This document shows, in pieces, positions 16,641 through 32,000 of a stretch of DNA of 32,000 nucleotides; positions within the stretch are counted from its first letter, which is position 1; each line of letters starts with the position of its first letter. Both the position numbers and the translations under genes were made by a program. The DNA is from Gammaproteobacteria bacterium (GTDB lineage: Bacteria; Pseudomonadota; Gammaproteobacteria; Thiohalomonadales; Thiohalomonadaceae): contig JAWLHA010000048.1 of assembly GCA_041690535.1 (NCBI GenBank), positions 1 to 32,000 of the forward strand, in the 5' to 3' direction. Below the pieces are notes generated by a model. The model searched no databases. It saw only the letters and a list, made by a program, of their open reading frames with translations, and was not told where the DNA came from.

Positions 16641-16705
16641 TAACGCCAAGCTCAGCCGTGGAAGGCCGCATCGCGGCCTGACGTCACTGGAGCGACGTGT
16701 TAAGC
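16638..16705 (-). repeat. attC site (68 bp) of cassette 1, carrying the intron at its R' box
   Basis: The minus strand reads GCTTAAC-ACGTC-GCTCCAG...GTCAGGCCGCGATGCGGCCTTCC...CTGAGCTTGGC-GTTATCG. R'' overlaps the TAA stop and is the exact complement of GTTAAGC at the cassette start (17436-17442). Confidence 0.8.
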
Positions 16706-17416
16706 GGTCGATTCACGTTCATACGCCTTTATTGCATCGATCACAAATTCCAACTTCGCCATAGGAATTCTGGCCCTTCGGGTACTATCATCAGAACCAT
16801 TTGCCGATAACTCCTGGGCACCAGGGAAATCTTTAATGGCATCTTCAGTTGACTTCGTTTTCGACCATATGGTTAGCGTGTACCGCCCACCGGTTCTAGT
16901 ACTTAATGCCAATCGGTAGTCCCCAATGCCGAACCTAACCGCACGTTCGTTCTTTGTGACATGGTGGTCTATGTTTAGCTCTTCTAGGTACGGCACAACT
17001 TCTGTATAGATTCGCTGAGAGCTCTTCGTGTTCTGTGCGTCTTCGGCCGCTTTCACATCTTGATCGTCTGCAACTTCTATCTCTTGTGCATCTGGATGAT
17101 AGACACGAACAAAATCAGAGACAGCGTCAACTAAGGTCTCGTTTCCATCCCAAAAGTACTCGCCATCGAGGCGCGAGTTATCCAGGATCGTGTGAAGCAT
17201 CTGCTCTACCGCCGTCGCATCAAGGCCAGTCCAGGCCCTGATGATCGATATCTTGACTGGGCTCACGGTGCCCAACAATTCACGCTCCCTTCGCTCCGGA
17301 TGGTCAGTAGTAATCCCGATCTTCTTTATCGGCGGAAAGGAAGCGTCCCCGTCGAACTTCTGCAACTTCGCAGAGAAAAGCGGTGCAGCAATGTACAAAG
17401 TGTTCTGTGCGTTCAT
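16700..17416 (-). CDS. T5orf172/MUG113 (GIY-YIG superfamily)-like N-terminal domain protein with an unknown C-terminal domain (cassette 1)
   Basis: 238-aa ORF. The stretch IKKIGITTDHPERRERELLG...AVEQMLHTILDNSRLDGEYFW matches the T5orf172 pattern (KIGxT..RR..EL...E..LH......GEWF). The C-terminal ~110 aa was not recognised. Confidence 0.7.
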   Translation of the reverse strand: MNAQNTLYIAAPLFSAKLQKFDGDASFPPIKKIGITTDHPERRERELLGTVSPVKISIIRAWTGLDATAVEQMLHTILDNSRLDGEYFWDGNETLVDAVSDFVRVYHPDAQEIEVADDQDVKAAEDAQNTKSSQRIYTEVVPYLEELNIDHHVTKNERAVRFGIGDYRLALSTRTGGRYTLTIWSKTKSTEDAIKDFPGAQELSANGSDDSTRRARIPMAKLEFVIDAIKAYERESTA

Positions 17417-17435
17417 ATTCTCCTCTCACCAGAGC

Positions 17436-17550
17436 GCTTAACAGTTGATTAGACCGACCATCCATTAACCGGAACATTCCGGTATCGGGCCATAACTTCC
17501 GCCAGACTGCCACAAATTTCCATTATTGGACATGCTGAATACTTCCATTA
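17436..17550 (-). other. Array-proximal junction, possibly an attI-like site
   Basis: The minus strand ends CTAATCAAC-T-GTTAAGC, a simple-site-like L/R box pair. It is preceded by three direct TAATGGA repeats (17461-17467, 17519-17525, 17544-17550) and the 16-bp palindrome ACCGGAACATTCCGGT (17468-17483). No integrase gene is adjacent. Confidence 0.3.
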
Positions 17551-17958
17551 ATCGACATCCGGCGCATCCCCGAGAATCCGGTCGGTGAGGCCGAGGTCGG
17601 CGGCAACGGCATACGGGACGATCCAGGCGCGGCGCGTGGTGTCCCAGGTACCTCCGGCGGCCTTCACCGTCGCGCGCAGCGCGGTTTCGTCGTAAGCAAT
17701 CCGCACGTGCACCCGCTGATTGGGGCGGGGAAAGAGGCGCCGCTCCTGCGGCGTGCGGGTCGCCCTGGGGCCTTCATCGATGATGAGTTCCACGGTGGTG
17801 AACCGGCGATCACTCTCTGCGTCGTGGCGGTATCGGACAATAAGAAGGCGGTCGCCGAAGCGGCGCTGTAGACGCTTGGTGCCCGGCTGGCCGGGGCGGA
17901 GCGGTTTGATAACATCCATGTGCATACCTCTCGGATTCCTTTCCAGGGATAGTGTCAT
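17548..17958 (-). CDS. Hypothetical protein. The C-terminal motif resembles the small domain GxWDxxxxxWxVP found in phage/plasmid proteins.
   Basis: 136-aa high-GC ORF. The more likely start is the ATG at 17919 (MDVIKPL), preceded by GAGAGG. The C-terminus reads AAGGTWDTTRRAWIVPY. Confidence 0.6.
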   Translation of the reverse strand: MTLSLERNPRGMHMDVIKPLRPGQPGTKRLQRRFGDRLLIVRYRHDAESDRRFTTVELIIDEGPRATRTPQERRLFPRPNQRVHVRIAYDETALRATVKAAGGTWDTTRRAWIVPYAVAADLGLTDRILGDAPDVD

Positions 17959-18365
17959 GCGTGGCCCCGTTCCTCGGCCACTCTGCGGAGATCCGCGATC
18001 CTTCGGCGCGATGCTTCATCCACCCAGACCCGCAGGGACTGGATGCGCTGACCGATGATGATGCGGCGCAGTTCGTCCTGCTTGTGGGGCGGGTGGTGTT
18101 TGGGGCGGGTCCCGGGCGCATCGGCCGCCTGAAACGGCTTGATGATAGCGCGGAGACGGCGGGGGAAGGAAGCGTAAGGGGATAAGGAGATGCCTCAGTG
18201 GTCCGGCGAGCGCGCTGCGCCTCGCGGTAGCGGGGGATGGCGCCATCGTCCGTGTCTGCCCCGGGCAGCCGGTGTCCTGCGCGGGGCGCCCAAGTAGCCC
18301 GCTGTCGGAGTCGGGGAGAGCCGCCAGGCGGGCCTTCCCCTCCGCATGATGGGCAGGCGGTTGCC

Positions 18366-19418
18366 CTACGCAGGTCCGGGATTTGGCAGAAGTGGTTGCC
18401 GGGACGGCACCTGTGAAGGGACGAGGTGCACGGCGTAGAGGAGGGCGAGCATCAGCAGCGCCGCGCCACCGTTGTGGGCCACGGCGAGGAGCAGGGGGAA
18501 TTGCAGCAGGACGTTTGCAACGCCGATGATGAATTGGGCGGTCACGGTCAGGGCGACCCAGGCACCGGCACGGCGATAACTGCCCCCCGCTTTCAGCAGG
18601 CGCAGGGCCAGCAGGGCGGCGAGCAGGGCGGTCAGGAGCGCGCCAAGCCGGTGGGTCACATGAATCGCGGTGCGTGCCGCGGCATGCAAGGTGCCGCCCT
18701 CGAAATCCTGAGCGGTCGGGGGAAGCTCCGGTTGCAGCGCGGCCCCGAAGTCCATCTCCGGCCACCAACGCCCCTGGCACTGTGGAAAATCGGGGCAAAA
18801 CGGGGCTGCATAGTTGGCGCTGGTCCAGCCGCCGAGGGCGACTTGGCAGGCGGCAACGATGAGGGTGATCCTGGCGAGGCGGCTCACGCCGGGCGAGGTG
18901 ATGGGCGAGATGCGGGGCCTCTGTCCCAGCCACATCCAGAACAGGAGGGCGGTGGTGGCGAACCCACCCAACAGGTGGGCGGTTACCACCATGGGTTGGA
19001 GCTTGAGGGTCACCGTCCACATGCCGAGCAGCGCCTGGAAGATCACAAGGAGCAGCAGCGCACCGCTGAGGCGCCGCATGGAACGGGTCGAGCCCTGGCG
19101 GCGCGCGAGGACAAAGAGCAAGAGGATAAGAAGCCCGAGGCCGCCGGCCCCGTAGCGGTGCACCATCTCCTTCCACGCCTTGGCATGCTCGAGGGGGCGC
19201 TCCGGGTAGAGTTCGGTGGAGGCGGGGACGACCACCTTTCCGTAACAGCCCGGCCAGTCCGGGCAGCCGAGCCCGGCATCCGAAAGCCGAACGTAGGCCC
19301 CGAGCATCACCACAACGAGGGCGAGCAACAGCGCGCCACTTGTCAGCCAGAAAAAGATCCCCCGGGTTTGGGGAGGTTTTTGATTACTCACGCCAACCTC
19401 TTCAGAAGAACGGCACAT
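18366..19418 (-). CDS. ctaA: Heme A synthase (COX15/CtaA family)
   Basis: 350-aa ORF with 8 TM helices. It has the CtaA motifs GAYVRLSDAGLGCPDWPGC, HRYGAG and HVTHRLGA, plus a second Cys pair CPDFPQC. The start could instead be the GTG at 19391. Confidence 0.9.
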   Translation of the reverse strand: MCRSSEEVGVSNQKPPQTRGIFFWLTSGALLLALVVVMLGAYVRLSDAGLGCPDWPGCYGKVVVPASTELYPERPLEHAKAWKEMVHRYGAGGLGLLILLLFVLARRQGSTRSMRRLSGALLLLVIFQALLGMWTVTLKLQPMVVTAHLLGGFATTALLFWMWLGQRPRISPITSPGVSRLARITLIVAACQVALGGWTSANYAAPFCPDFPQCQGRWWPEMDFGAALQPELPPTAQDFEGGTLHAAARTAIHVTHRLGALLTALLAALLALRLLKAGGSYRRAGAWVALTVTAQFIIGVANVLLQFPLLLAVAHNGGAALLMLALLYAVHLVPSQVPSRQPLLPNPGPA

Positions 19419-19453
19419 CCTTATGAACCATAGTGCATGTTATCTCGCATTTC

Positions 19454-19687
19454 GTAACTACTCACCCGCATCCGTCATTCCCGCGAAGCCTGCCCCCGAG
19501 AGCTTTAATCGGGGGGCGGGAATCCAGTGCTGGACTTCAGAGGGCCAAGCGTATTGGGCTGGGCGCCTTATGGATTCCCGCCTTCGCGGGAATGACGAAC
19601 AGTACAAGTAGCGAGGATTGAGTGCGGTGAACCTGCGACCGCATCCTAATTCCATAAGCGGGAAGCAGTCGGAGAGCGAGTAGTTAC
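19454..19687 (-). mobile_element. 234-bp MITE (family 1, copy B, inverted relative to copy A) with 8-bp target site duplication
   Basis: Its reverse complement aligns with 13157-13365 over the full length. It has the same gtaactactc termini. The direct repeat cgcatttc flanks it at 19446-19453 and 19688-19695. It carries a 26-bp internal insertion (19489-19514) that is absent from copy A. Confidence 0.85.
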
Positions 19688-19961
19688 CGCATTTCTTACC
19701 TGGGCCCCGAGACCTCGCGGGTTACCGGCGAGGGACCGCCGCTTTCACATCACTGCGATGTGCAGGCGGTTTCGCCGCGCGCAATCTCACCAACAGGGGC
19801 AAGTGTTTTTCTCTACGAAGTTGACGGTGGGCCTTCTGTTACACCGAGGAGGCGGACGGGCGTCGGGCGCCCCTGCCGCTTATGGGCGGCATTGCCTGGG
19901 AGAGGCGTGGTCAGGTCCCGCCGCTCAGGCGGCAGCGCCGCCCGGCGTCTTCCGACTCTTC

Positions 19962-20156: not shown

Positions 20157-20375
20157 GGCGCACCTCCTGCTGTGAAGCCTGAGCAGAAATTGAGTATTTC
20201 GCTTATGAAAATTATTACCCTCATGGAACGGTGTGCAAGTTCCTCAAGGCCGATCGCTGGTAGTGCTATCGATGGTGTGCGATAGGTCCCGCTTCCTTGC
20301 CACGGCAGGTACATGGGCTAAATAAGGGGGATCTGCGGTTTTCGCCACATGAGGGGTGCCCTCGAGGAGACGGGG

Positions 20376-21956
20376 ATGATTGCGAAAGCGCTTTGCTCCG
20401 CAGTGCTGGTGGGGCTGCTGCCCTGGAGCGCCGGTGCGCAGCCGCCCACTTCGACCGATCTCGCGGGCGAGAGCGTCGAGGCGCCGCCGCTACCTCCGAG
20501 CGGGGAGCGGCGGGAGCGTTCCGATCGGGCGATTACCGATGCGGTGGTGGCCGAGATTGGGGCGGACCCCGCCGTTGCGCTGGACCACATCGAGGTGGAG
20601 ACCGACGGCGGCATTGTTCGGTTGCAGGGTACCGTGAGCAACCTCCTCGCCAGGGACAGGGCCACGGAACTTGCCGAGGCGGTGAAAGGGGTCCGTGCGG
20701 TGGTCAATTACATCGAAGTGCGCCCGTCGGAGCCTCGCAGCGATCGTGCGCTCCACCAGGATATCGCCGCGGCGCTGGATGCCCACCCCGCGGTGGAGGC
20801 AAGCGATATTGACGTTGAGGCGGAGGACGGCATCGTCACGCTGACCGGTACCGTTGGGGCGTGGCTCGAAATGCAGGCGGCCCTCCGTGTGGCCAAGAGC
20901 GTACGCGGCGTGCGCGGGGTGAGAAACCGTATGGGCTTCGATTTCGACGAGCAGCTTTCGGAAGCGGAGATCGAATCCCGGGTCGGCTCGGCGCTGCGTT
21001 GGGATGCCCTGGTCGATGACAGCCAGATTGAGGTGCAGGCGGAAGGCCATCGGGTGACGCTCTCGGGGGTGGTGGGCAGTGCGGCGGAGAAGCGCCGGGC
21101 CATGAAGAGTGCCGGGATCCCGGGCGTCGAGGAGGTGGATGTTGCCGCCCTGGAGGTCGATCCGGCCGTGGCAAATGGTGGCGTGCGCCATGACAGCCCT
21201 CCGGGGCAGCGTGATGCCGAGCTGCGGCAGGCGGTGTTGGCTGTACTGCGGGCTGACCCGCGTGTGGATGCCGAAGGCCTTCAGGTGGAGGTCGCCGAAG
21301 GGGTGGTGGTGCTCCGGGGGGAGGTGGCGACTGTGGACGCGAAATTGGCCGCCGGCAGTGGCGCCCGAACCACGTTGGGAGTGGTTGCGGTGGACAATCG
21401 CTTGAAGGTCGAGCCCCGGGAGGAGATCACCCAGGCGCGCCTCGAGCAGGCGCTGGAAGCGGCGATTGACCGAAGCCCCTATCTCGAACCCTATGACATT
21501 CATGTGGTGGTGGCGGAGGGGATTGCCTTCCTCACCGGCATCGTGAGCTCCTCGTTCGAGAAAGCGGAGGCCCACAGGATCGCCGCCAGCGTGCGAGGGA
21601 TCCGCAGTGTGCAAAACATGTTGAGTGTCCTCGACGAGAGTGGGCCCCCGGGGTTTGATCCCTATGTGGACGAGTATGCCCTGTTCGATTACGACTGGTA
21701 CAAATACGAGCCCCCAACCACGGCGCGGTCTGACGCCGAGATCCGGCAGGACATCGAAAACCAACTTTTCTGGAGTCCATTGGTGGACGGCCAACGGGTC
21801 GGGGTCGAGGTGCACGATGGCGTCGCCTACCTGCGCGGGACGGTGAGTTCATGGGCTGCGCGGCAAGCCGCGGCGGAGAATGCCTTCGAGGGCGGCGCGG
21901 TGTGGGTGGAGAACGATCTCGTCATCGACACCGGCCGCGGGGAGGAGGGGTCCTGA
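20376..21956 (+). CDS. Secreted protein with six tandem BON domains (OsmY-like)
   Basis: The ATG at 20376 is preceded by GAGGAG. The signal peptide is MIAKALCSAVLVGLLPWSAGAQP. There are six repeats of the BON pattern (D..I...V...L..dp.v....i.V.v..G.V.L.G.V.s......A...a..v.GV..V.N.l.V). Confidence 0.88.
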   Translation: MIAKALCSAVLVGLLPWSAGAQPPTSTDLAGESVEAPPLPPSGERRERSDRAITDAVVAEIGADPAVALDHIEVETDGGIVRLQGTVSNLLARDRATELAEAVKGVRAVVNYIEVRPSEPRSDRALHQDIAAALDAHPAVEASDIDVEAEDGIVTLTGTVGAWLEMQAALRVAKSVRGVRGVRNRMGFDFDEQLSEAEIESRVGSALRWDALVDDSQIEVQAEGHRVTLSGVVGSAAEKRRAMKSAGIPGVEEVDVAALEVDPAVANGGVRHDSPPGQRDAELRQAVLAVLRADPRVDAEGLQVEVAEGVVVLRGEVATVDAKLAAGSGARTTLGVVAVDNRLKVEPREEITQARLEQALEAAIDRSPYLEPYDIHVVVAEGIAFLTGIVSSSFEKAEAHRIAASVRGIRSVQNMLSVLDESGPPGFDPYVDEYALFDYDWYKYEPPTTARSDAEIRQDIENQLFWSPLVDGQRVGVEVHDGVAYLRGTVSSWAARQAAAENAFEGGAVWVENDLVIDTGRGEEGS

Positions 21957-21978
21957 ACTGGCTGAGCATGGCAGCGAT

Positions 21979-23091
21979 TCAGAGTGCCGCCGTGCCCGCC
22001 GAGCGCCGCAATCGTGCGGCCTCCTGCAGATGTGCGATGAGCTCGGCGGCGCGGTGGGTGGCGGTATGCTCCGCAAGCACCCGCTGCCTGCCGCGCTCGC
22101 CGACCGCCTGGCGCGCCGTATCGCTCATGTCCCGGAGGTGGCCAAGACACTCCTCGGGCGAACGCGCCACCAGAATTTCCTCGCCAGGGGTGAAGACCGA
22201 ATCCAATCCCTCCCATGGATCGCTGATGATTGGCGTTCCACAGGCGGCCGCTTCGAACAGCCGTACGCTTGGCGAATACCCCAGGCGCACCATTTCCGCT
22301 CGGGTGGCATTCAGGGTGAAGCGCTGCCTGTTGTAGAAGCTGCGGTGCTCGCTGGGCGGAAGGTGGTCGATGCGGTCAACGTTTTCGGCCCACTCGATCC
22401 CCGACGGGTACATGGGCCCGGCAACGATGAAGCGTCTCTCGGGACAGGCCCGGGCGGGTGTGTTGAGCAGGGATTCGAGCACCGGTTGCCGATCCTCGGC
22501 GTAGGTACCGAGATAGCCCAGGTCCCACAGGCGCTCCGTGGGCTCGGGGTAATAGGCGGAGGGATCCACTGAACAGTAGAGCGGCCGTGCGCAGGGCGAT
22601 CCGTAGCGCCGCTCGATCAGTTCCAGGGTGGGCCCGCCGGTGAAGGAGAGGTAGAGGTCGTACTGCCCGATCTGCGCTGCCGTGAGGTAATCGGTGCCGC
22701 CCCGCGCCAGGTTGGCAAGGGTGACCGGTGTGTCGATGTCGTAGAAGGCCCGCACCCCCCGCGCCTCCCCCAGCACCCATTGGGCGGCCAGTGCACCCTC
22801 GGGGACGTAGGAGCCCAGGATCACCGCGTCGGCCTGGCGGAGGTTTGCTCCATAGGTATCCCGTAGTTCTTCGAGACTCTCGTACAGCTCGGTCCGGCCC
22901 CATGGGGGCGTGAGCAAATCGCGGTTCTCCCTGTACCAGGGTTTGTCCCGCTCGAGAAACAGGACGCGGTGCCCCTGTTCGCAGAGTTCACGCACCAACG
23001 CGCGGTAGGTGGTGGCGTGTCCGTTCCCCCAGGAGGAGGTGATGGTGAGCCCTACAATGACGATGTCCATCGGTTCCGACATGGGTGGCAA
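21979..23091 (-). CDS. CgeB/DUF3880-like glycosyltransferase (paralog 1)
   Basis: 370-aa ORF. The N-terminus is SSWGNGHATTYRAL. The C-terminal motif SPSVRLFEAAACGTPIISDPWEGLDSVFTPGEEILVAR is shared with 27335-28432 and 28447-29562. Confidence 0.8.
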   Translation of the reverse strand: MPPMSEPMDIVIVGLTITSSWGNGHATTYRALVRELCEQGHRVLFLERDKPWYRENRDLLTPPWGRTELYESLEELRDTYGANLRQADAVILGSYVPEGALAAQWVLGEARGVRAFYDIDTPVTLANLARGGTDYLTAAQIGQYDLYLSFTGGPTLELIERRYGSPCARPLYCSVDPSAYYPEPTERLWDLGYLGTYAEDRQPVLESLLNTPARACPERRFIVAGPMYPSGIEWAENVDRIDHLPPSEHRSFYNRQRFTLNATRAEMVRLGYSPSVRLFEAAACGTPIISDPWEGLDSVFTPGEEILVARSPEECLGHLRDMSDTARQAVGERGRQRVLAEHTATHRAAELIAHLQEAARLRRSAGTAAL

Positions 23092-23106
23092 CTCCCGCGG
23101 GTTATC

Positions 23107-24198
23107 TCAGGGTGCGAGGCGGGCGGCGGGCCGGTCCAGAAGGCGCCGGTAAGCGCCCCAGTAAGCCCTGGCCATTGCTTCGGCCTTGAAGGCCGCGGCC
23201 CGTCCACAGGCCGCCTCAGCAAGTCTGCTACGCCGCCTGGGGCGGTCGATGAGGGCATTGATGGTGCCGGCGAGCGCTGTGCTGTCGTCTGGCGGCACAA
23301 AGGTCGCCGCGCCGTCCCACAACTCCCGAAAGCTCGGGATGTCCCCCAGCACCAACGGACAGCCGGACTGCGCCGCCTCCAGAACGGAGAGGCCGAAGGG
23401 CTCGTAATAGGCGGGAAAGGCGTAAATTCCCGCCTTCGCGAAAAGCCCCACGAGGAGGTCCGGGGCAAGCTGGCCATGACAGCGCACCTGTTCCAGATCC
23501 ACCTGCCCCCCATCGGGATGATGCGCCTCGCCCACCACGTGCACCGGCCATCGAATTCCCGCTGCCGCAGCCGCCACGGTGTGCACGTTCTTGGCCTTGT
23601 CCCACAGCCTTCCCACGGTGAGGACAAACTCCTGCTTGGGGGCCGGTCTGAAGCCTCCGCAGGTGCCGTTGTGGATCACCTGGGTGGTCCGGAGGGGGCC
23701 ATAGAGCCGATGCAACTGGCCCATCATGAAGTGGGAGGGTGCCACCACCAGGTCGGCGGCGTGGAGACCTGCCCGAATCTTTTTTTCATAATTGCGATAG
23801 GCTGCAGGGGCCCGCTGTCGGTGCACCGCCTGCCACCACGACAGCACGCAGGAGTGTCCAACCACCACCACCGGCGCGCGCCAGGGAAGGGCGCCGTGGG
23901 CATAACTGTTCAGGTGGATCAGCTCCGGCCGGTGCCGCGCCTCCAGCCCCAACAGCCATTCCCCCGCACGTTGCACATCGGCCCAGGGGTCCTGCATCCA
24001 TTCGAGCCGGTAGCGGCTCTCTTCCACCTCTACCCGCATGCCCCGCACCTGTTGGCGCTGGGTCCGTGAGAGGCGGCCGCCCATGGTCGCAAGTACCACT
24101 TCCGCCTCGCCAAGCGCAGAGGCCAGGGTCAGGGCGTAGTGCCAGACACCGCCCACGGTGTCTGCCGTCATCAGGATGCGCGTGCCCTTGCGGTTCAA
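23107..24198 (-). CDS. Glycosyltransferase family 4 (GT-B, group 1)
   Basis: 363-aa ORF with a TTG start preceded by AAGGA. It has GGVWHY near the N-terminus and the EX7E-type motif YEPFGLSVLEAAQSGCPLV. Confidence 0.85.
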   Translation of the reverse strand: MNRKGTRILMTADTVGGVWHYALTLASALGEAEVVLATMGGRLSRTQRQQVRGMRVEVEESRYRLEWMQDPWADVQRAGEWLLGLEARHRPELIHLNSYAHGALPWRAPVVVVGHSCVLSWWQAVHRQRAPAAYRNYEKKIRAGLHAADLVVAPSHFMMGQLHRLYGPLRTTQVIHNGTCGGFRPAPKQEFVLTVGRLWDKAKNVHTVAAAAAGIRWPVHVVGEAHHPDGGQVDLEQVRCHGQLAPDLLVGLFAKAGIYAFPAYYEPFGLSVLEAAQSGCPLVLGDIPSFRELWDGAATFVPPDDSTALAGTINALIDRPRRRSRLAEAACGRAAAFKAEAMARAYWGAYRRLLDRPAARLAP

Positions 24199-24334
24199 TG
24201 GTCATCCTTAGTGGAATTGTTGGCAGGCAGCAGCATCATCCGTGCCACCCTGGAATCATAGCCGGACGGGTGTGGAGTCACTGCTTCGGCGCGAGATATC
24301 GGGGGCAAGGGCAGAAGAATTTTCAACAAGGCGT

Positions 24335-24358
24335 GTAAAAGCTGCAGGCCTGCAGCTT
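24335..24358 (-). terminator. Palindrome plus T-tract (putative intrinsic terminator) inside the tail of the ferritin-like ORF
   Basis: aagctgcaggcctgcagctt (24339-24358) is a perfect 20-bp palindrome. On the minus strand it is followed by TTTTAC. Confidence 0.4.
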
Positions 24359-24360
24359 GC

Positions 24361-24385
24361 GTAGGGTGGATGCGCGCAGCGCATC
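24361..24385. repeat. Single REP-like unit related to the arms of the 27233-27302 palindrome
   Basis: gtagggtggatgcgcgcagcgcatc compares with gtagggtggataagcgcagcgcatccacc. Confidence 0.5.
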
Positions 24386-25333
24386 GAGACTCTCTGACAG
24401 CGAGGTGCGGGGATCGGTGACCACCTTCAGTACGCCTTCACTGGTCACCCCGGCCACATCGGCCGAAGGCGTAACGGAGGTGGGGTCGCCCCCGAGGTCC
24501 ACCATGGCGTTGCGCAGCATTTGAAAGTGGGCGAGTTCTTCATGGTGAAAATGGATCAGTTCGTCCCGCGAAGGGCCGCCGGCCCAGCTGCCCTCGGCAT
24601 CGAACTTGTCCAGCAGCCCCTCATACAGCCGCGTCCCGGTGCGTTCGAACGCCAGGTTCTCGCCCAGCTTATCCAGGAAGATGATGGGGTCCTTCCCCTT
24701 GAGCGCCTGCATTCCGGTCTTGATCGCCCCCTTGAGAGAGCTTGGCGCGGGGGCCGAGCCGATGGACGGTGCTTCGCCCGCATACTCCTTGCGGGTAGCG
24801 GAGGCGAATTTTGGCCAGGGATTCGCGCAGGTCCTTGTTCATGCGCGCACAGGCGTGCTGGAAGCGGATCGCCTCGGACTCGATCCCGTTCATCAGAATC
24901 ACCCGGACCCGCGTGAAGGCATCATCATCCAGCTTGCTGAAAGGGGGCGGACCATCTCTTTCCAGGTGAATTTCTGGTCGCCGATGGGAACGCCTTTCTC
25001 CTTGATGATGTCCAGTGCCATGTCGCTGCCTCCTTGCAGTTTGGAAGGGAGTTGGAGAAGGGCATCCGTGCCCTTCTCCAACCGCCGCGCCCGGCCCGTG
25101 AGCCTTGCGCGGTTCCCCGAATCGAGCCACCACAGGCTCGGCTCGGGGGCGGAGCGTCCGTGCCCCGCAAGTGCGACCCTCTGCACTGATGGTGGGGGAT
25201 ACCCCGACACGTCCCCTGCGACGATATTAGTCCGCCATGGAAGCAGCGTCGAAAAGTTTTGCGACCCCTGCTGTCTCCCGTGCCTTGGACTGCTAATTGT
25301 TCTAGCGAGGGGGTCGTCGAAGAGGTAACGGAG

Positions 25334-25609
25334 ATGGGTCGGGAAGCCCGCTTCACACTCAGAAAGTGTTACGTCGGCGAGGATTTGGCAGATAACCCGC
25401 CAATGCGCCTGCAGCTATCGGTCACTTACCAGATGGACGGCGCTGAGGAGCAACGAACCTTTCTCCAGAGTGAAATAGAGCAGGCGCGGCTGTTCGTAGA
25501 GAAGTGCCGGAGCGACGGGTTGTCTGCCGAGCAGATCAGCGAACTGGAACACTGCTTGCGGGCGTTCGAGGCGGGAGAGTCGCGTCCCTTGTGGCAAGAG
25601 TTCACCTGA
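25334..25609 (+). CDS. Hypothetical protein (91 aa)
   Basis: The ATG at 25334 lies downstream of AGAGGTAACGGAG. The ORF is oriented opposite to the surrounding operon. No family was recognised. Confidence 0.5.
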   Translation: MGREARFTLRKCYVGEDLADNPPMRLQLSVTYQMDGAEEQRTFLQSEIEQARLFVEKCRSDGLSAEQISELEHCLRAFEAGESRPLWQEFT

Positions 25610-25627
25610 GGTTGACCAGGAGGCTGT

Positions 25628-25846
25628 ATGGCAAACGATCCGTTTGGCGAACCCGGTCGGGGACGGCCTGAAAGCGGGACTGGCGGTGTGCTCCAGCTCA
25701 TTGGCGGGACGGCGCTCATTCTGCTTGGGCTCAAACGCAGGACACGGTTGCGCCTACCCGCGGCGCTCGGCGGAGCCGCGATAGTGTATCGCGGCGCACA
25801 ACGCTATCGAAGGTACCTGCAGGAGGCCGCAAGGGCGGAGAAGTGA
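25628..25846 (+). CDS. Small membrane protein, DUF2892/YgaP-TM-like
   Basis: A strong RBS, AGGAGGCTGT, precedes the ATG. The sequence LIGGTALILLGLKRRTRLRLPAALGGAAIVYRGAQRY resembles the two-helix GL.RRS...LA..GG.L.YRG motif. Confidence 0.6.
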   Translation: MANDPFGEPGRGRPESGTGGVLQLIGGTALILLGLKRRTRLRLPAALGGAAIVYRGAQRYRRYLQEAARAEK

Positions 25847-25869
25847 TTGGGCCCGTGGCTCGAAACCTG

Positions 25870-25892
25870 CGGCGGGGCATTACGCCCCGCCG
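25870..25892. terminator. GC hairpin between convergent genes
   Basis: cggcggggc (25870-25878) pairs with gccccgccg (25884-25892) around a 5-nt loop. There is no T-tract. Confidence 0.4.
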
Positions 25893-25905
25893 GGCCCGAT
25901 GAAGG

Positions 25906-27147
25906 TCAAGGCTCCAGGGTTATCTTGATGCACCCCGCCTGCTTGTCGCGAAACATCGCATAGCGCCCGGCGCATCCTCCAGCTTCAGGCGGTGGCTGAT
26001 CACGAAGGTGGGATCGATGTCTCTGTGTTCGATTCGCTCGAGGAGCATCGGCATATAGCGCGGCACGTGGGTCTGGCCCATCTTGAAGGTCAGTCCCTTT
26101 GCAAAGGCCGCTCCCATGGGGAACTTGTCGATCACCCCGCCGTAGACGCCCGGGATGGAGACCGTTCCCCCTTTGCCACAGGTGTAGATGGCTTCCCGCA
26201 GCACCGTGGCCCGGTCGGTCTCGAGCATGAGCGATTGCTTGAGTTTGTCGTACTGCGCTGTAATACCGTGTCCGTGGGCCTCCATTCCCACTGCGTCGAT
26301 ACAGGCGTCGGGACCGCGTCCCCCCGTCATCTCCTTGAGGGTCTCCGATACCTTGTGCTCCCTTGTGCTCATTGCGGTTGAGGATCTCTATGCCGCCGTC
26401 GCCATGCTCCTTCGCCATGGCCAGCCGATCGGGAAGGCTGTCGATGGCGATCACCCGCTCGGCACCGAGCATCAGCGCGCTCTGCATGGCGAACTGTCCC
26501 ACAGGGCCCGCCCCCCACACCGCGACCACATCGCCCGGCGCGATCCCGCAGGCCTCCGCCGCCTGGTAACCGGTGGGGAGGATGTCCGACAGGAACAGCA
26601 CTTGCTCATCGTCCAGGCCGACATCGGGGATCTTGATCGAGCCCGTGTCGGCGAAAGGCACCCGAAGGTACTCCGCCTGCCCCCCGGCGTAGCCGCCGAG
26701 CATGCGGGTGTAGCCAAACAGACCGGCGGGCGAGTCACCGTAGAGTTGCTCTGGCATCCAGGCATCTTGCGGGCCCGGCTTGTCCGGTCATTATTCGTTC
26801 CGCCATCGTGGGTCCCTCTTCGTAGCGTTACGCTGACTGCCGTCAGTGATGTGGCGAGCGTGCGGACCGCCGACCCGTCGGTGGCGCAGGCTGTGCCCCG
26901 GACGGTTATGGACGCGCCCGTCGAGCACACAGGGAGGTGTTTGCTGCAGTCTTGGCCTTGGCATGCCCCGGATTCCGCTGGCGCTCCATCCGGGCTACAA
27001 GGTTCCATCCCCAACTGCCTGTATTGACCCCCGCCGCAATTTTCCTGTGGCCCCGATTCCGCTAATGTGATCTCTCTATAGGTTGTTCACTCTGGAGCAC
27101 CGAACAGGCGAATCCACCCAGTCCTGCCATTGCTGTTTGCGTTCCAT
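25906..27147 (-). pseudogene. Zn-dependent alcohol/formaldehyde dehydrogenase-like gene, disrupted by multiple frameshifts
   Basis: The C-terminal two thirds can be reconstructed across three frames: [22 protein letters not shown]...VWGAGPVGQ...[12 protein letters not shown], then a shift at the 10-bp tandem duplication 26351-26370 to [27 protein letters not shown]...[15 protein letters not shown], then a shift near 25962 to [18 protein letters not shown]. An in-frame TGA lies ~30 nt upstream of 26757. The N-terminal part (26790-27147) is not readable in any single frame, so the 5' limit is uncertain. Confidence 0.7.
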
Positions 27148-27232
27148 GACATACCTCCACTCAGCGAGTGTCGACATGGTTTACACCCCCAAGGCTAGCC
27201 CAGCTTCCTTAGCGGTTACCGGTGCGCAGAGA

Positions 27233-27302
27233 TGTAGGGTGGATAAGCGCAGCGCATCCACCATTCGGACCCGGTGGATGCGCTGCGCTTATCCACCCTA
27301 CA
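27233..27302. repeat. REP/BIME-like perfect palindrome (two inverted 30-nt REP units)
   Basis: tgtagggtggataagcgcagcgcatccacc - attcggaccc - ggtggatgcgctgcgcttatccaccctaca. The motif GATGCGCTGCGCTTATCC..CCTAC resembles enterobacterial REP units. It lies 33 nt downstream of the stop of 27335-28432. Confidence 0.7.
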
Positions 27303-27334
27303 TTATTGTTCGGTGCTCGGGTGACCTGTGCGAC

Positions 27335-28432
27335 TCAGGTGCCGCTCAACACCGCCCTGTGGGCGCCTGTAAGGACCCCTTCCACCTGGGCGGCGCGCTG
27401 GTCGTAGGTGTGGTGGGCGAGGACGCGAAGGCGTGCACACTCACCGAGGCTGCGGGCCCGCTTCGGGCTCAGGGCAAGGAGGTGGCCGATCACCTCGTCA
27501 CCGTCCCTCGCCACCAGGATCTCGCTGTCGGGCTCGAAGAAGACATCGATCCCCTCCCAGGCATCGGTGATGATGCAGGCCCCGGCGCCGGCGGCCTCGA
27601 AGACCCGGGTGGCGGGCGAGAAGCCGTTGTGCGCCATGCTGTCGCGACTGATGTTGAGTACCGCGCGGGTGCTGCAGTTGAAGGCGTTGTGATCGGCAGT
27701 GTAGACGTGGCCCACATATTTCACGTTTTCGGGCATCGGCTTGTCGTGCCAGCCGTTGCCGCCGAGCAGAAAGCTCTCGTGCGGCAGGCACTCGGCGGCA
27801 CGGAGAAAGAACGATTCCACGCGCCGTTCCCGATCGGGCAGGCGGTTGCCGAGGAAACCGAGGCTGGCGTGAAAACGCCCCTCAGCCGAAACGGGGTAGT
27901 GGGTGTCGGGGTCCAGGGCGTTGTAGATCGGGACGCAGCGGCGCGCCCCCAGCCGCTCGAAGGCCGCCACCACCGGGTCTCCGCCCCCGTAGGTGAGCAC
28001 GAAGTCGTACTCGGGCAAAGTGGCCCGCAACGGATCGTTCCGGTCCTCATTCAGGCGTTGCAGTGTGGCCGGCGCATCCACATCCCAGTAAATGGCCAGG
28101 GTGCCGGGACGCACCGTCGCGGGCACGGCCCTCTCGAGCAGGGCGTCGTACACGCCGATGCCGCTGGCCTTGACCACCACATCGGCGCCGCTGGCCTGCT
28201 CCAGCATGCGCAGAGCAGCGGCGTCGTCATCACCGGGATAGACCACCACCCTGGCCCAATCGGGGTCCGGCATGTCGCGGTGCTGTTGGCGCTCGTAGGC
28301 GTCGGGCTCGTAGAAGGTGATGCGGTGGCCCCGCCGGGCCAGCGCCTTGAGGAGCCCTCGGTAGTAGGTGGCCGCGCCGTTCCAGTAGGCGGAAACCAGG
28401 CTGGAGCCGAAAAAGGCGATGTCGAGTCTCAT
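27335..28432 (-). CDS. CgeB/DUF3880-like glycosyltransferase (paralog 2)
   Basis: 365-aa ORF. The N-terminus is SAYWNGAATYYRGL. The C-terminal motif is SPATRVFEAAGAGACIITDAWEGIDVFFEPDSEILVAR. Confidence 0.8.
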   Translation of the reverse strand: MRLDIAFFGSSLVSAYWNGAATYYRGLLKALARRGHRITFYEPDAYERQQHRDMPDPDWARVVVYPGDDDAAALRMLEQASGADVVVKASGIGVYDALLERAVPATVRPGTLAIYWDVDAPATLQRLNEDRNDPLRATLPEYDFVLTYGGGDPVVAAFERLGARRCVPIYNALDPDTHYPVSAEGRFHASLGFLGNRLPDRERRVESFFLRAAECLPHESFLLGGNGWHDKPMPENVKYVGHVYTADHNAFNCSTRAVLNISRDSMAHNGFSPATRVFEAAGAGACIITDAWEGIDVFFEPDSEILVARDGDEVIGHLLALSPKRARSLGECARLRVLAHHTYDQRAAQVEGVLTGAHRAVLSGT

Positions 28433-28446
28433 GGGTAGCGTGTCCT

Positions 28447-29562
28447 TCAGTTGTGATACACCGACGGCAGACCCAGCTGGCGGCAGATGGCCAGCAGCTC
28501 ATCCACCCGGTGGGCGCAGGTGTGGCGTTTGAGGATGGTCTCGTGGCCGCTCAGGGCCAGCTCGGCGGCCATCTCCGGGTCATTGAGCAGGTCGCGGATC
28601 TGCCGTTTCACCTCCCGGCCGTTGCGGGCGACAAGGTAGTCGCGGCCGGGCCGGAACAACCCCTCGATATCCTCCCACGGGGCGCAGATGAGCGGGATGC
28701 CGCAGGCCAGCGCCTCGAAGGGGCGGATGGTGGGAATGCCAGGCAAGGCCTCCACGTAAGGCCGCCGGGGGACATGCACGGTGCAGCGGAAGCGACTGAA
28801 GACTTCGGGGACCTCAAAGTTGGGCAGCCATCCGGCGTACTCGATCCCCCGGTACTCCAGCGCCTCCCTCGCTTCGCGGGGGTAGCGCACCCCATAGACA
28901 CGCCCCTTGAGCTTCAGCTCCAGAATGGGATCGAAGACGAACTCGAACAGCTCGGAAGTGCGCTCTTCGTCACCCCAGTTGCCCACCCAAACCAGATCGC
29001 CCCAGTCACGGGTGTGGCCGTCGAGGGGGCGGAACACGCGGGTGTCCGCCGCCTCGTGCCAGGTCCAGGCCCGCTGTATCCACCCCTTGGCCAGGTAGAG
29101 GTCGCGGATGACCTCGCCAAAGGCGAGCACCCCGTCGTAGTGCGAGAGATCGTAGGCGGCGATGCTCTGGCGCTCGGTGAGGGAGCGGTGGTGGGTGTCG
29201 TGGAACAGCAGCCGGTAGCCATTGTGCCCGGCCCGGTGGCGTCCCACCCGGGCGACCAGTTCGTGGTCACTCCATTCGTGGATGATGACCAGATCCGCCC
29301 CCTCGAGAACCCGGTCCAGATCCAGCTCTGCCAACCGGTAGGCGTGGCTCTCCAGCCCAGGATAGACGCGCCGGAATTTCTCCAGGGAAGCCGGGCCGCC
29401 GGGCTCCTCCAGCAGGTTGACCAGGCTCCAGGCCTGCTCCGGCTCGTACACCGCCACCTCATGGCCGCGGGACCGCAGCTCGGTGACGACCCCCCGCAGG
29501 AAGTGGGCGTTGCCGTGGTTCCAGTCGGACCGCAGCGAATGGTAGAAGAGGACGAGTCGCAT
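28447..29562 (-). CDS. CgeB/DUF3880-like glycosyltransferase (paralog 3, more divergent)
   Basis: 371-aa ORF. The N-terminus is SDWNHGNAHFLRGV. The C-terminal motif is IRPFEALACGIPLICAPWEDIEGLFRPGRDYLVAR. Confidence 0.75.
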   Translation of the reverse strand: MRLVLFYHSLRSDWNHGNAHFLRGVVTELRSRGHEVAVYEPEQAWSLVNLLEEPGGPASLEKFRRVYPGLESHAYRLAELDLDRVLEGADLVIIHEWSDHELVARVGRHRAGHNGYRLLFHDTHHRSLTERQSIAAYDLSHYDGVLAFGEVIRDLYLAKGWIQRAWTWHEAADTRVFRPLDGHTRDWGDLVWVGNWGDEERTSELFEFVFDPILELKLKGRVYGVRYPREAREALEYRGIEYAGWLPNFEVPEVFSRFRCTVHVPRRPYVEALPGIPTIRPFEALACGIPLICAPWEDIEGLFRPGRDYLVARNGREVKRQIRDLLNDPEMAAELALSGHETILKRHTCAHRVDELLAICRQLGLPSVYHN

Positions 29563-29566
29563 GGGA

Positions 29567-30856
29567 TTACCCGCCCTTGCCGGGGGTGGGGAGAATTTCC
29601 AGCTGGGGCAGCGGCAGAGGGTGCTCCTCCTGGATGTCGCTGAAGCGGTCGAACAGCGAGAGGTAGTGTTCGTGGGCCCGCTCCCACGCGTGGTCGTCCG
29701 GTGGGCCCCACAAGGCCGTGTAGCTGGACGAGCCGGGGTAGGGGAAGAGGGGGACCGGCTCGTTGGCCCACACCCCTTCGGTGATGAGCTCCTGGCGCCA
29801 ACGGGTCACCGCGTCGCTGTCATCCACCTGGGAGTCGAGCAGGGTGGCCTGCACGAACGGGACGCTGCGCCGAGCGTGAACCAACCGCTCCTTCAACTGC
29901 TCGGCACCCATGCGGCAGTTCTTGTTGAGCAACATTCGCCCCAGCTCGGAGATGCTCTCCACCCCCGCCTCGATGGAGACGCATCCGGCCTCGCCCATCA
30001 GCTCGAGCATCTCGGGTTTCCACAGGTCGATGCGGGTCTGCACGCCGAAGCGGATCTCCCTCTCCCGGAGGGCCTCCAGCAGCTTGCGATCGGGGAGGAA
30101 AATCTCGTCCACGAAGTAGACGTAGCCGGCCCCCTTGGCGATGAGATCGTCCAGCTCTTTCACCACCTTCTCCAACGGCCGCCGGCGGTAGCGATCGCGG
30201 TAGTTCTCCTTGGCACAGAAGGTACAGCTGTAGGGGCAGCCGCGGGAGGCCTCCAGCTCGGCCCCCAGCCCCTTCCGCGGCTCGTCGAAGCGATGGTGGT
30301 GGTGGGGGTGGAGGAATTCACGGGGCCAGTGCAACGCCGGCAGGGCCGCCATGTCCGCCGCCTGGGGCCCCCCCTGGACCACCACCTCCGCGCCGCGGCG
30401 GTAGGCGATGCCCGTGGTCTTCAGCCCCTCGCGGGCAAGACGGGGCAGGACCTCCTCGCACTCGCCGAGCACCACCACGTCCGCCCCGCTCTTGCGCAGG
30501 GCCGCCGCCGGGGTGGTCGAGCCGTGGGGGCCCACCAGGACCACCGTCCCGGCCACCTCCCGCAGTGCGGCGATGGTCTGGCGCGGGACCCGCAGCTCCG
30601 GAGGGGGGCAGCGCCAGAAGAGGTAGCTGGGGGCGGAGGTGACTACGGTGAGGTCGGGCCTGAACTCCGCCAGGCGGGCGCGAATGCCGTCCAGGCCGGT
30701 GGGAAACAGGGTGGCATCGAGCAGCAGTACCTCATGGCCCCGCGCCTCCAGGAGCGCCTTGGCATAGCCGTACTCCAGCGGCAGGTGCGGCTCGCGGCAG
30801 CCGAAGTAGATGCTTCCTTCGAAGGTCCAGTGGGGGTTTACCAGGGCGAATCTCAT
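29567..30856 (-). CDS. B12-binding-domain radical SAM protein
   Basis: 429-aa ORF. The N-terminal part has a cobalamin-binding-like Rossmann region. The radical SAM cluster motif is ASRGCPYSCTFC. It overlaps the upstream gene by 4 nt, which suggests translational coupling. Confidence 0.88.
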   Translation of the reverse strand: MRFALVNPHWTFEGSIYFGCREPHLPLEYGYAKALLEARGHEVLLLDATLFPTGLDGIRARLAEFRPDLTVVTSAPSYLFWRCPPPELRVPRQTIAALREVAGTVVLVGPHGSTTPAAALRKSGADVVVLGECEEVLPRLAREGLKTTGIAYRRGAEVVVQGGPQAADMAALPALHWPREFLHPHHHHRFDEPRKGLGAELEASRGCPYSCTFCAKENYRDRYRRRPLEKVVKELDDLIAKGAGYVYFVDEIFLPDRKLLEALREREIRFGVQTRIDLWKPEMLELMGEAGCVSIEAGVESISELGRMLLNKNCRMGAEQLKERLVHARRSVPFVQATLLDSQVDDSDAVTRWRQELITEGVWANEPVPLFPYPGSSSYTALWGPPDDHAWERAHEHYLSLFDRFSDIQEEHPLPLPQLEILPTPGKGG

Positions 30857-31950
30857 AGGGCCATCCTCCCGGTCGCGTCATCGGATTCGGTGCCGTACTG
30901 GCGGGCCAGCCAGGCGTAGAGGCGGGCCACGCCGTTTTCGGTATCCACGGCGGGGCGCCAGCCGGTCAGGTCACTGAACCGGCGGGTGTCGGAGACGTAG
31001 TAGCGCTGGTCGCTGGTACGCCACTGCTGGAACTGCACCTCGGGCGCGGCACCCTGGAGCTTTTCGATCATCGCCAGCAGCTGCCGCAGGCTCAGGGTGT
31101 TGGCCGGGCCGCCGCCGATGTTGAAGGCCTGGCCGGCGAGCTGGCTCATGCGCGCCTGGGCCATGAGCAGCGCCTCCACCAGATCGTCCACGAACAGCAC
31201 GTCGCGCACTTGGCGGCCATCCCCGTAGATGGTGATGGGCCTGCCCAACAGGGCCTGCTTGAGGAAGTGGGCCACCCACCCCTGGTCCTCGGTGCCGAAC
31301 TGCCGGGGGCCGTAGATGCAGCTCATGCGGAACACCGCCGTGGGCACCTCGAAGGTGTGGGCGTAGTCAAGCACGTACTGGTCGGAGGTGCCCTTGGAGC
31401 AGCCGTAGGGGCTGCGGAACTCCAGTCCCCGCAGCTCACTGATCCCCTGGGCCCGGGTGGTGCTGTCGGCCGGCTCATAGGTGAGGGGGGTCTCCCGCAG
31501 GGGCACATTCTCCAGCCCGCCGTAGACCTTGTTGGTTGAGGTGAAGACCAGCGAGGGCGGGGCATCGCGGCGGCGGATCTCCTCAAGCAGATTGAGGGTG
31601 CCGCGGCTGTTCACCTCGTAATCGTCCACCGGGTTGGCGAGGCTGGTGGTCACCGCCACCTGGGCGGCGAAGTGGTAGACGCGGCCCGCCCGGGCGACCG
31701 CCTCCCGAAGGGCATGCCGGTTGCGAATGTCCGCGAGGCGGAACTCCAGCCCCTTGGGGTGGCGCCCCATCAGCCAGCGCAGATTCTGCTCGGTGCCCGG
31801 GCGCGAGAGGTTGTCCAGCACCAGCACCGGCTCGCCTTCGCACAGCAGTCGGTCAGCCAGATTGGTGCCGATGAATCCGGCACCACCGGTGATCAGCGTC
31901 ACCGGTGCGCCCTTGCGGCGCACGGGGCGACGCTCCAGCGACTTGAGCAT
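30853..31950 (-). CDS. NAD-dependent sugar epimerase/dehydratase (extended SDR, CDP-paratose 2-epimerase-like)
   Basis: It has TGGAGFIGTN and the catalytic YGCSK (YxxxK). The track start is the GTG at 31959, and the ATG at 31950 is an alternative. The frame stays open to the window edge, so the true start is uncertain. Confidence 0.85.
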   Translation of the reverse strand: MLKSLERRPVRRKGAPVTLITGGAGFIGTNLADRLLCEGEPVLVLDNLSRPGTEQNLRWLMGRHPKGLEFRLADIRNRHALREAVARAGRVYHFAAQVAVTTSLANPVDDYEVNSRGTLNLLEEIRRRDAPPSLVFTSTNKVYGGLENVPLRETPLTYEPADSTTRAQGISELRGLEFRSPYGCSKGTSDQYVLDYAHTFEVPTAVFRMSCIYGPRQFGTEDQGWVAHFLKQALLGRPITIYGDGRQVRDVLFVDDLVEALLMAQARMSQLAGQAFNIGGGPANTLSLRQLLAMIEKLQGAAPEVQFQQWRTSDQRYYVSDTRRFSDLTGWRPAVDTENGVARLYAWLARQYGTESDDATGRMAL

Positions 31951-32000
31951 GTCGGCCACGGCCGCCAGCCCCCCCTGCCCCAGCAGGCGGTGAAGCAGCT

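Follow-up and report, generated by a model that had tools for sequence, protein, structure and literature searches.

What does a bacterium build with a B12-binding radical S-adenosylmethionine (rSAM) protein, a nucleotide-sugar epimerase homolog and four predicted glycosyltransferases encoded side by side? This question is raised by the minus strand of positions 21979-32000 in a 32,000-nt stretch of DNA from an uncultured gammaproteobacterium (contig JAWLHA010000048.1, positions 1 to 32,000; hereafter, the window, overall G+C ~66%), which carries six intact genes, all co-directional. An earlier note, made from the sequence alone, had treated the set as an uncharacterised glycan-type operon. 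The cassette to which the genes belong is already catalogued, through TIGR04295 and TIGR04290 in NCBIfam and as the "rhizo-twelve system" in Joint Genome Institute (JGI) annotations, and the window holds a further member. In the reading that we consider probable, the window carries the core block of the rhizo-twelve cassette, which would encode a cytoplasmic pathway to a defined, tailored oligosaccharide or glycoside.

Conservation of the rhizo-twelve cassette

The JGI name [quoted passage not shown] is borne by homologs of the window's rSAM protein at 61-71% identity. When genomes were scanned, one per species, at least 553 hits that encode a relative were obtained, and the window proteins, together with Nitrosococcus and Bryobacterales neighbours, were mapped by tblastn onto 81 loci. 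Downstream genes were counted in the 75 loci with at least 5 kb of sequence beyond the rSAM gene, and the upstream short-chain dehydrogenase/reductase (SDR) genes in 74. The glycosyltransferase family 4 (GT4) gene and three paralogs of the PF13524 family (G12a, G12b, and G12c) were all present in 71 of the 75 loci; taken singly, GT4 was found in 74, G12a in 73, G12b in 72, and G12c in 71. Upstream of the rSAM gene, SDR_A, which resembles tyvelose 2-epimerase (TyvE), was found in 68 of 74 loci, and a GalE-like SDR in 73. The order SDR-SDR_A-rSAM-GT4-G12a-G12b-G12c, with GT4 directly after the rSAM gene, was observed in 56 of the 81 loci. Carriers among the hits belong to the Acidobacteriota, Alpha- and Gammaproteobacteria, Myxococcota, Cyanobacteria, and Nitrospirota, and protein matches also came from Dehalococcoidia, Armatimonadota, Gemmatimonadaceae, and Ramlibacter. 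By sequence comparison, the GalE-like SDR, the TyvE-like SDR_A, the B12-binding rSAM protein, GT4, G12a, G12b, and G12c form a seven-gene core that is syntenic across six phyla.

The core is often accompanied by an accessory module, which was found within 10 kb in ~40 of 60 loci and consists of a histidine phosphatase, a fourth PF13524 paralog (G12d), an RmlA/GalU-like nucleotidyltransferase, a TIGR04290 methyltransferase, and a protein resembling clan GH-A glycoside hydrolases (GH) with a "WNEPN" motif. Core and accessory genes together are the twelve genes of the rhizo-twelve name. In Nitrosococcus wardiae, the gene order is GalE-like SDR, SDR_A (with a GH-like part), rSAM, GT4, and three PF13524 genes, followed by a UXS-like SDR, a GH-like protein, a histidine phosphatase, a TIGR04290 methyltransferase (326.7 bits; cutoff 300), and a GT9-like gene. 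Gene fusions indicate that the modules belong together: G12c is joined to the TIGR04290 methyltransferase in Kastovskya adunca (P0187, 629 aa), the methyltransferase to the GH-like protein at 17987-19750 of locus L014, and the GH-like domain to SDR_A in several loci, including L082. A double PF13524 protein of 625 aa was also seen in a member of the Kofleriaceae (P0122).

The window shares with the rhizo-twelve system the same TIGR04295 rSAM protein, the TyvE-like SDR, GT4, and the three distinct PF13524 paralogs, and orthologs of its genes are carried by Nitrosococcus, Bryobacteraceae, Bradyrhizobium, Sorangium, and cyanobacteria. It differs from the usual arrangement (rSAM-GT4-G12a-G12b-G12c) in its split gene order, in the pseudogenes that lie within the break, and in having no accessory module in view. 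That the genes are chance neighbours with no shared function, or were brought together by an assembly artefact, might be argued from the 3.1-kb pseudogene stretch that splits the set and from the uninformative promoter and terminator signals (a scan of 21800-27400 gave signals no better than shuffles). This explanation, to which we assign a probability close to nil, is refuted by the recurrence of the same set, mostly in identical order, in those 71 independent loci from six phyla, and by the fusions that link the modules. The earlier proposal of a functionally linked, glycan-type gene set thus passed the co-occurrence test suggested in the same note, with a strongly positive outcome. Its statement that the set cannot be linked to a described product also agrees with the literature and database comparison: no paper on the rhizo-twelve system was found among 8.3 million full texts, and no characterised product is linked to it.

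Organization of the cluster

The window order is rSAM-G12a-G12b // GT4-G12c, and the cluster forms two tight blocks, 3.1 kb apart. The earlier gene calls were borne out, including the co-directional minus-strand arrangement, the SDR, the rSAM protein with its CPYSCTFC motif, and GT4. Tight packing was likewise seen within the blocks: SDR_A and the rSAM gene overlap by the sequence ATGA (30853-30856), and the gaps measure 4 nt between rSAM and G12a, 14 nt between G12a and G12b, and 15-24 nt between GT4 and G12c. A single packed operon, as implied in the earlier note, is not what the split into two blocks describes. The start of G12c is most likely the ATG at 23082 (the collection's own call for this protein, P0121, is 367 aa), and that of GT4 may be the ATG at 24171. 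At the other end, the cluster runs past the edge of the window, as had been noted.

The radical SAM enzyme

The marker gene of the cassette lies at 29567-30856 on the minus strand, and its 429-aa product matched NCBIfam TIGR04295 with 689.7 bits (cutoff 400), residues 2-420 aligning with positions 1-422 of the 422-position model. The B12-binding domain PF02310 was matched with 39.7 bits (gathering threshold, GA, 32.1) and the radical SAM domain PF04055 with 56.1 bits, and the CX3CX2C motif is formed by C207, C211, and C214 (CPYSCTFC). On these matches, the protein is assigned to the class-B radical SAM enzymes and, within them, to family TIGR04295 of the rhizo-twelve system. Comparison of 74 TIGR04295 sequences revealed an invariant stretch, H183-x-H185-(H186)-H187-H188-R189-F190, located just ahead of the radical SAM cluster motif, and three further invariant residues, C20, C83, and C292; C314 is conserved in at least 90% of the sequences. 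The invariant histidine motif and the extra cysteines could provide a metal site or bind an auxiliary cluster.

The AlphaFold2 (AF2) model of the protein (predicted local distance difference test, pLDDT, 89.9) was compared with known structures by Foldseek. The best matches were TsrM, OxsB, MgmA, AprD4, CysS, and TokK, with E-values from 1e-13 to 7e-18, template-modelling (TM) scores of 0.62-0.66, and sequence identities of 13-20%. The class-B enzymes TsrM, OxsB, MgmA, CysS, and TokK, and the B12-independent AprD4, have in common with the window protein an N-terminal Rossmann-type B12-binding domain and a partial TIM-barrel that carries CX3CX2C. In contrast to the characterised class-B enzymes, the TIGR04295 protein is shorter and has its own invariant HxH(H)HHRF stretch and C20/C83/C292. 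Cobalamin binding and methyl transfer are predicted functions of this protein, for which no sequence motif is diagnostic.

These structural relationships bear on an alternative, in which the cassette directs the synthesis of a specialised metabolite, such as a glycolipid, an aminoglycoside-like pseudo-oligosaccharide, or a carbocyclic sugar, and the rSAM enzyme would rearrange or contract a ring in the manner of OxsB or HpnJ. OxsB and AprD4 are among the nearest folds, there is weak similarity to the NCBIfam families HpnR, HpnJ, and the ladderane-lipid rSAM, and class-B enzymes such as GenK and Fom3 offer textbook precedents for action on aminoglycosides and nucleotide-linked substrates. However, no conserved aminotransferase, inositol or 2-deoxy-scyllo-inosose synthase, acyltransferase, lipid-related, resistance, or export gene was found nearby, and the broad distribution and strong constraint of the cassette are unlike those of patchy secondary-metabolite clusters. 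A specialised metabolite is, on balance, an unlikely product.

The tyvelose-2-epimerase-like gene

SDR_A is encoded at 30853-31959 on the minus strand, in a frame that is open to 31998, and matched PF01370 with 173 bits. In the Protein Data Bank (PDB), full-length similarity was found to two CDP-tyvelose 2-epimerases of the SDR1E family (EC 5.1.3.10), 9rl0 (283 bits; E-value, 3e-83) and 1orr (279 bits; 8e-82), and the next SDR scored 132 bits. Alignment to 9rl0 revealed that the catalytic segments STNKVYG, SPYGCSKG, and EDQGW, which contain TNK, YxxxK, and the DQGW lid loop, are kept, while VAM is changed to VAV. The features that define SDR1E are all found in SDR_A, namely, the Thr/Tyr/Lys triad, the essential Asn of the TNK segment, and the Gln-Gly-Trp lid loop. 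The catalytically important residues of TaTyvE have been defined (PMC13098431), and TaTyvE was shown to interconvert CDP-glucose and CDP-mannose (PMC7851689); the TaTyvE papers contain nothing on genomic context. SDR_A can be classified, on sequence, as a homolog of the CDP-tyvelose-2-epimerase-type C2-epimerases that act on nucleoside diphosphate (NDP)-hexoses. It differs from TyvE in the VAV segment, in a GH-like fusion that is seen in its relatives and is probable here, and in its setting, which lacks neighbours from a 3,6-dideoxyhexose pathway. A tyvelose or paratose O-antigen pathway was ruled out: no dehydratase, E1, or E3 genes were found among the cassette neighbours or the conserved flanking families, and the neighbouring SDR, at 42.6 bits, falls far short of the cutoff of 278 for the CDP-glucose 4,6-dehydratase model.

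The first residues of SDR_A in the window, LLHRLLGQGGLAAV, match the tail of the N-terminal GH-like domain in fused forms of 640-650 aa. Because of this match and the frame that is open to 31998, the gene is probably truncated at its 5′ end by the edge of the window, and the GTG at 31959 is unlikely to be its start. The true gene would probably encode ~645-650 aa, with the GH-like domain fused at its N-terminus and the C-terminal half held in the window, and the GalE-like SDR (~370 aa), the first gene of the core, would lie beyond base 32000. The WNEPN/WNRPN acid-base motif of the GH-like N-domain is kept in the cyanobacterial and acidobacterial copies (L009 and L014) and has been lost in the gammaproteobacterial fused copies (L001, L005, L006, and L008), the loss suggesting a non-catalytic role of the N-domain in the latter.

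The PF13524 paralogs and GT4

The three PF13524 genes, G12a (28447-29562), G12b (27335-28432), and G12c (21979-23091), all on the minus strand, encode predicted GT-B glycosyltransferases of paralog groups a, b, and c, and matched PF13524 (Glyco_trans_1_2) with 129, 140, and 143 bits, respectively (E-values, 1e-37 to 1e-42; GA, 25 bits). The earlier label "CgeB/DUF3880-like" was right in that the three are paralogs of one family, the orthologs of which are named "CgeB family protein" or "spore maturation protein CgeB" by NCBI and JGI; its second half found no support, as no match to DUF3880 was returned. Pairwise identity among the three proteins within the window is 25-36%, whereas each is 50-72% identical to its orthologs in other phyla; identities to the N. 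wardiae orthologs are 63% for G12a (375 aa), 66% for G12b (369 aa), 64% for G12c, and 55% for GT4. Consensus sequences, built from at least 70 orthologs per group, revealed a private signature for each paralog, in addition to a shared core, R(L/V/P)FEAxxCG ... WxG..F.PGxE(I/F)LxA ... HT. The motif that the earlier note had described as common to all three is approximate, as G12b reads FEAAGAG and F.PD. The sequence comparison indicates that the three paralogs are old, and that each is a separately conserved orthologous group. The individual constraint and the private signatures suggest four or five non-redundant transferase steps, rather than a polymerase.

GT4 (23107-24198, minus strand) matched PF00534 (65.5 bits), PF13439 (57.5 bits), and PF13579 (47.2 bits), and contains the canonical EX7E motif, YEPFGLSVLEAA. 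The four G12 groups all have another residue in place of the first EX7E Glu and retain the second, within FEA. PF00534, which is above threshold in GT4, reached 26.2 bits in G12a (threshold 26.4) and was absent in G12b and G12c. The AF2 model of G12c (pLDDT, 95.7; predicted TM score, pTM, 0.92) has the two-Rossmann GT-B fold, and its top ~40 Foldseek matches were GT4 and other GT-B enzymes, with TM scores of 0.6-0.73. The best structures (E-value, ~1e-14; TM, ~0.7) were ManT (7qsg), which ranked first, sucrose-phosphate synthase (SPS, 6kih), MshA, and BshA; tetrahydrobiopterin glucosyltransferase, TreT, and GlgM were further neighbours. The nearest structures of G12c are thus GT4 enzymes that act on soluble acceptors.

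Given the CgeB name, the PF13524 paralogs might act in the glycosylation of one or more proteins, a role suggested for CgeB with respect to the Bacillus spore crust; the SDRs and the rSAM enzyme would then supply an unusual donor sugar. Bacillus subtilis CgeB has the PF13524 domain in common with G12a-c, and the strength of the PF13524 matches (129-143 bits) and the naming of the orthologs both speak for this possibility; CgeB has been associated with CgeA, a glycosylated protein of the crust (PMC13577073). In contrast to CgeB, the genes studied here have no sporulation context and no CgeA, and three to four specialised paralogs are placed in a sugar-nucleotide/rSAM cassette. No crust genes were found in the window, which carries smc-zipA-ligA, a gammaproteobacterial arrangement, and derives from a non-sporulating gammaproteobacterium, and no conserved candidate acceptor protein or small open reading frame (ORF) accompanies the cassette. 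Moreover, stepwise assembly on a small acceptor accounts better for a set of four or five distinct transferases with a histidine phosphatase and a hydrolase. Protein glycosylation is, accordingly, regarded as quite improbable.

The proposed pathway

The probable reading, a cytoplasmic pathway to a defined oligosaccharide or glycoside, can be laid out in steps. An NDP-hexose would be made by the RmlA/GalU-like nucleotidyltransferase, which belongs to the accessory module in other genomes. SDR_A would epimerise this NDP-hexose at C2, from the gluco to the manno configuration, and the second SDR would modify it further, at another position. GT4, G12a, G12b, and G12c, joined elsewhere by G12d, would each add one sugar in a stepwise manner, so that a short oligosaccharide with a fixed structure is built up on an acceptor that is soluble and may be phosphorylated. 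The class-B rSAM enzyme would tailor an unactivated carbon, most likely by C-methylation, with a rearrangement as the other possibility. The C-alkylated or oxidised product put forward in the earlier note is a conjecture. In full cassettes, the TIGR04290 methyltransferase, the histidine phosphatase, and the GH-A-like hydrolase may finish, trim, or recycle the product.

The location of the product is suggested by two findings. None of the twelve cassette proteins has a hydrophobic segment that reaches 1.6 in a 19-residue Kyte-Doolittle scan, and clustering of all unassigned flanking ORFs from the 81 loci revealed no conserved transporter, regulator, membrane family, priming transferase, or acceptor protein. 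The families that were found in the flanks are lineage-specific and mostly acidobacterial, including a general-stress-type SDR (20 loci), a vWA-like protein (18 loci), and a glycine-zipper membrane protein (15 loci). Because all proteins are predicted to be soluble and no exporter is conserved, the product is probably retained in the cytoplasm.

The same findings bear on a further alternative, a cell-envelope glycan (decoration of the lipopolysaccharide core or O-antigen, a capsule, or an exopolysaccharide), with export and priming encoded elsewhere. Surface-polysaccharide loci usually combine several glycosyltransferases with NDP-sugar SDRs, and the GH-like protein has weak similarity to PslG, which is a hydrolase from an exopolysaccharide pathway. 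However, no conserved flippase, polymerase, ABC exporter, chain-length regulator, or polyprenyl-phosphate priming transferase was found in the 10-kb flanks of the 81 loci, all twelve proteins are without membrane-like segments, and the structural neighbours of G12c use soluble acceptors. Surface-glycan loci also vary between strains, unlike the fixed gene set found here, with its 50-72% identity over six phyla. An envelope glycan is, therefore, kept as a minor possibility, and all three alternatives, envelope glycan, protein glycosylation, and specialised metabolite, are less well supported than the cytoplasmic pathway.

Several observations weigh against the cytoplasmic pathway. The core in the window is interrupted by pseudogenes, and this copy may be incomplete or decaying. 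No accessory gene gave a tblastn match anywhere in the window at an E-value of 1e-3, the 22 kb on the sequenced side included; the accessory module may be located elsewhere in this genome. The prediction that all cassette proteins are soluble comes from a crude hydropathy scan. AprD4, which is not a methylase, is an equally close fold to the rSAM protein, and the additional invariant cysteines and the HxHHHHRF motif of this protein are not accounted for by the proposed chemistry. In 25 of 60 loci, the cassette has a GT9 (heptosyltransferase-like) gene within 10 kb, as would fit an envelope glycan, and CgeB, the namesake of PF13524, is linked to surface-protein glycosylation.

Among characterised systems, the mycobacterial polymethylated polysaccharides offer the closest parallel to the cytoplasmic pathway. 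The presence of a histidine phosphatase recalls the logic of sucrose phosphate, MshA, and glucosyl-3-phosphoglycerate chemistry, and the methylglucose lipopolysaccharide (MGLP) pathway uses the histidine phosphatase GpgP. The methylmannose polysaccharide (MMP) cluster encodes ManT, MeT1, MeT3, and MmpH, that is, a GT4 enzyme, methyltransferases, and a hydrolase (PMC9883506). As in the full cassette, GT4-type GT-B enzymes, one or more SAM-dependent methyltransferases, and a dedicated hydrolase are found together with no exporter; in the structure comparison, G12c matched ManT (7qsg) best, and the full cassette contains an enzyme of the histidine phosphatase family. The two are not orthologous (G12c is 16% identical to ManT in the structural alignment) and occur in other taxa. 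The mycobacterial systems are without a radical SAM enzyme, whereas the cassette has one, along with four old PF13524 paralogs in which the first EX7E Glu is missing.

It may tentatively be proposed that the product of the cassette is a novel class of intracellular oligosaccharide or glycoside, with a fixed structure and with tailoring by the rSAM enzyme (C-methylated or rearranged), which would serve in protection against stress or desiccation. In Gram-negative bacteria, such a compound would be the equivalent of the polymethylated polysaccharides of mycobacteria, or of compatible solutes derived from phosphorylated acceptors. We regard this more specific proposal as possible, but not as the expected outcome. 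The BON-domain, general-stress SDR, alcohol dehydrogenase (ADH), and ferritin-like genes around the cassette, which are mostly lineage-specific, are weak hints of a stress role. Many carriers come from dry, saline, or nutrient-poor habitats, which is again a hint and nothing stronger.

Given at least 553 scan hits, spread over six or more phyla, the cassette ranks with the more broadly distributed and strongly conserved of the orphan glycan pathways. It combines a class-B rSAM enzyme, whose invariant poly-His motif is unique, with four specialised transferases of the CgeB type. Solving the cassette would assign a function to thousands of "CgeB family" and "TIGR04295" annotations, and might reveal a new intracellular glycan. 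The interest attaches to the orphan system as a whole, rather than to this copy; the window adds a rearranged gammaproteobacterial example, in which the core can be split after G12b, and in which the SDR_A fusion and the accessory module appear as variable elements.

The break after G12b and its pseudogenes

The 3.1-kb stretch between G12b and GT4 holds a decayed zinc-dependent alcohol dehydrogenase (Zn-ADH) gene and a truncated ferritin-like gene. The Zn-ADH remnant (25909-26787, minus strand), which resembles alcohol and formaldehyde dehydrogenases, is disrupted by at least two frameshifts, near 26380 and 25960, and matched PF00107 with 62 bits after frame repair. It covers residues ~110-389 of a 390-aa homolog from locus L009; the N-terminal 109 aa, with the zinc ligands, are gone. 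The ferritin-like remnant (24326-24838, minus strand) is truncated at both ends and matches residues 46-194 of ~250-aa proteins, with 55% identity over 150 aa to P0241 in tblastn. The fragment itself has no direct match in Pfam, NCBIfam, or the PDB, and no homolog was found in the other 81 loci, but some of its intact homologs reach PF00210 (Ferritin) weakly (P0248, 33.5 bits; GA, 24.5). Thus, the earlier recognition of a decayed Zn-ADH was confirmed, while that of a ferritin-like gene has weak support through intact homologs and none from the fragment. The decay is real, rather than a sequencing fault, because the six glycan genes are free of frame defects over 6.6 kb.

The earlier note had also counted both decayed genes in the pathway. 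This could not be upheld, as both are pseudogenes at a lineage-specific break, and not conserved members, with unrelated content at the same junction in a relative. The split order rSAM-G12a-G12b // GT4-G12c was found in three of 81 scan loci, all from Gammaproteobacteria: L004, L005 (Thiohalomonas), and L008. At the junction, L008 carries 5.6 kb of unrelated sensor-kinase/response-regulator genes, while only ~470 bp separate the blocks in L004 and L005, and Zn-ADH is absent from the G12b-GT4 junction in other loci. In the closest relative with a usable contig (L082, 68% identity), the GalE-like SDR, a 645-aa GH-like-SDR_A fusion, rSAM, G12a, and G12b are followed by a break. Since relatives break at this point with other content, the two remnants are best viewed as filler at a lineage-specific breakpoint.

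Intact ADH homologs occur within 10 kb of the cassette in two loci, namely, at 304-2798 of L009 (a cyanobacterium, two tandem copies, 56-63% identity) and at 2936-3772 of L054 (Bryobacteraceae, 63%), and a more distant homolog lies at 16652-17503 of L066 (a second Bryobacteraceae genome, 37%). This recurrence may reflect a shared stress-island setting, rather than a shared pathway. Between the two remnants, on the opposite strand, an ORF of 116 aa (25259-25609, plus strand) is of ordinary amino-acid composition; Pfam gave no match for it, and none of the 81 loci has a relative.

The remainder of the window

The remainder of the window is ordinary chromosome and includes smc-zipA-ligA, ZipA being a gammaproteobacterial protein. 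Ahead of smc, a run of genes at 177-5288 encodes a HAD hydrolase, a class I/II aminotransferase, a sulfotransferase, a CysZ-type sulfate transporter, and an FGGY sugar kinase; these are not linked to the cassette in other loci. At the other end, the gene at 20349-21956 (plus strand) encodes a protein of 535 aa, in which a hydrophobic leader at the N-terminus is combined with six BON domains (PF04972, 278 bits). The gene is convergent with G12c, the two stop codons lying 22 nt apart, and in Acidobacteria, too, at least one locus (L020) has BON-domain genes flanking the cassette.

A low-GC island spans ~12000-18000 (51-58% versus 63-70% elsewhere) and was probably acquired horizontally. Its genes encode an SDR (12145-13194), a rhodanese (13672-14079), a DUF2269 membrane protein, products of several ORFs without a family, and a T5orf172/MUG113-domain protein (16700-17416, minus strand) that weakly matches PDC-S57, a candidate defence family in PADLOC. 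The island also contains a group II intron RNA at 15975-16604 (minus strand), in which domains 1-4 matched RF02005 (16348-16604, 108 bits) and domains 5-6 matched RF00029 (15975-16049, 68 bits). The intron is ORF-less or degenerate, because the ~300 nt between the Rfam matches leave no room for a reverse transcriptase. Within its domain-4 region, at 16143-16180 (plus strand), a 19-nt sequence, ggcggaaaaggggtcggtg, is repeated twice in tandem and followed by an inverted copy, caccgacccctt.

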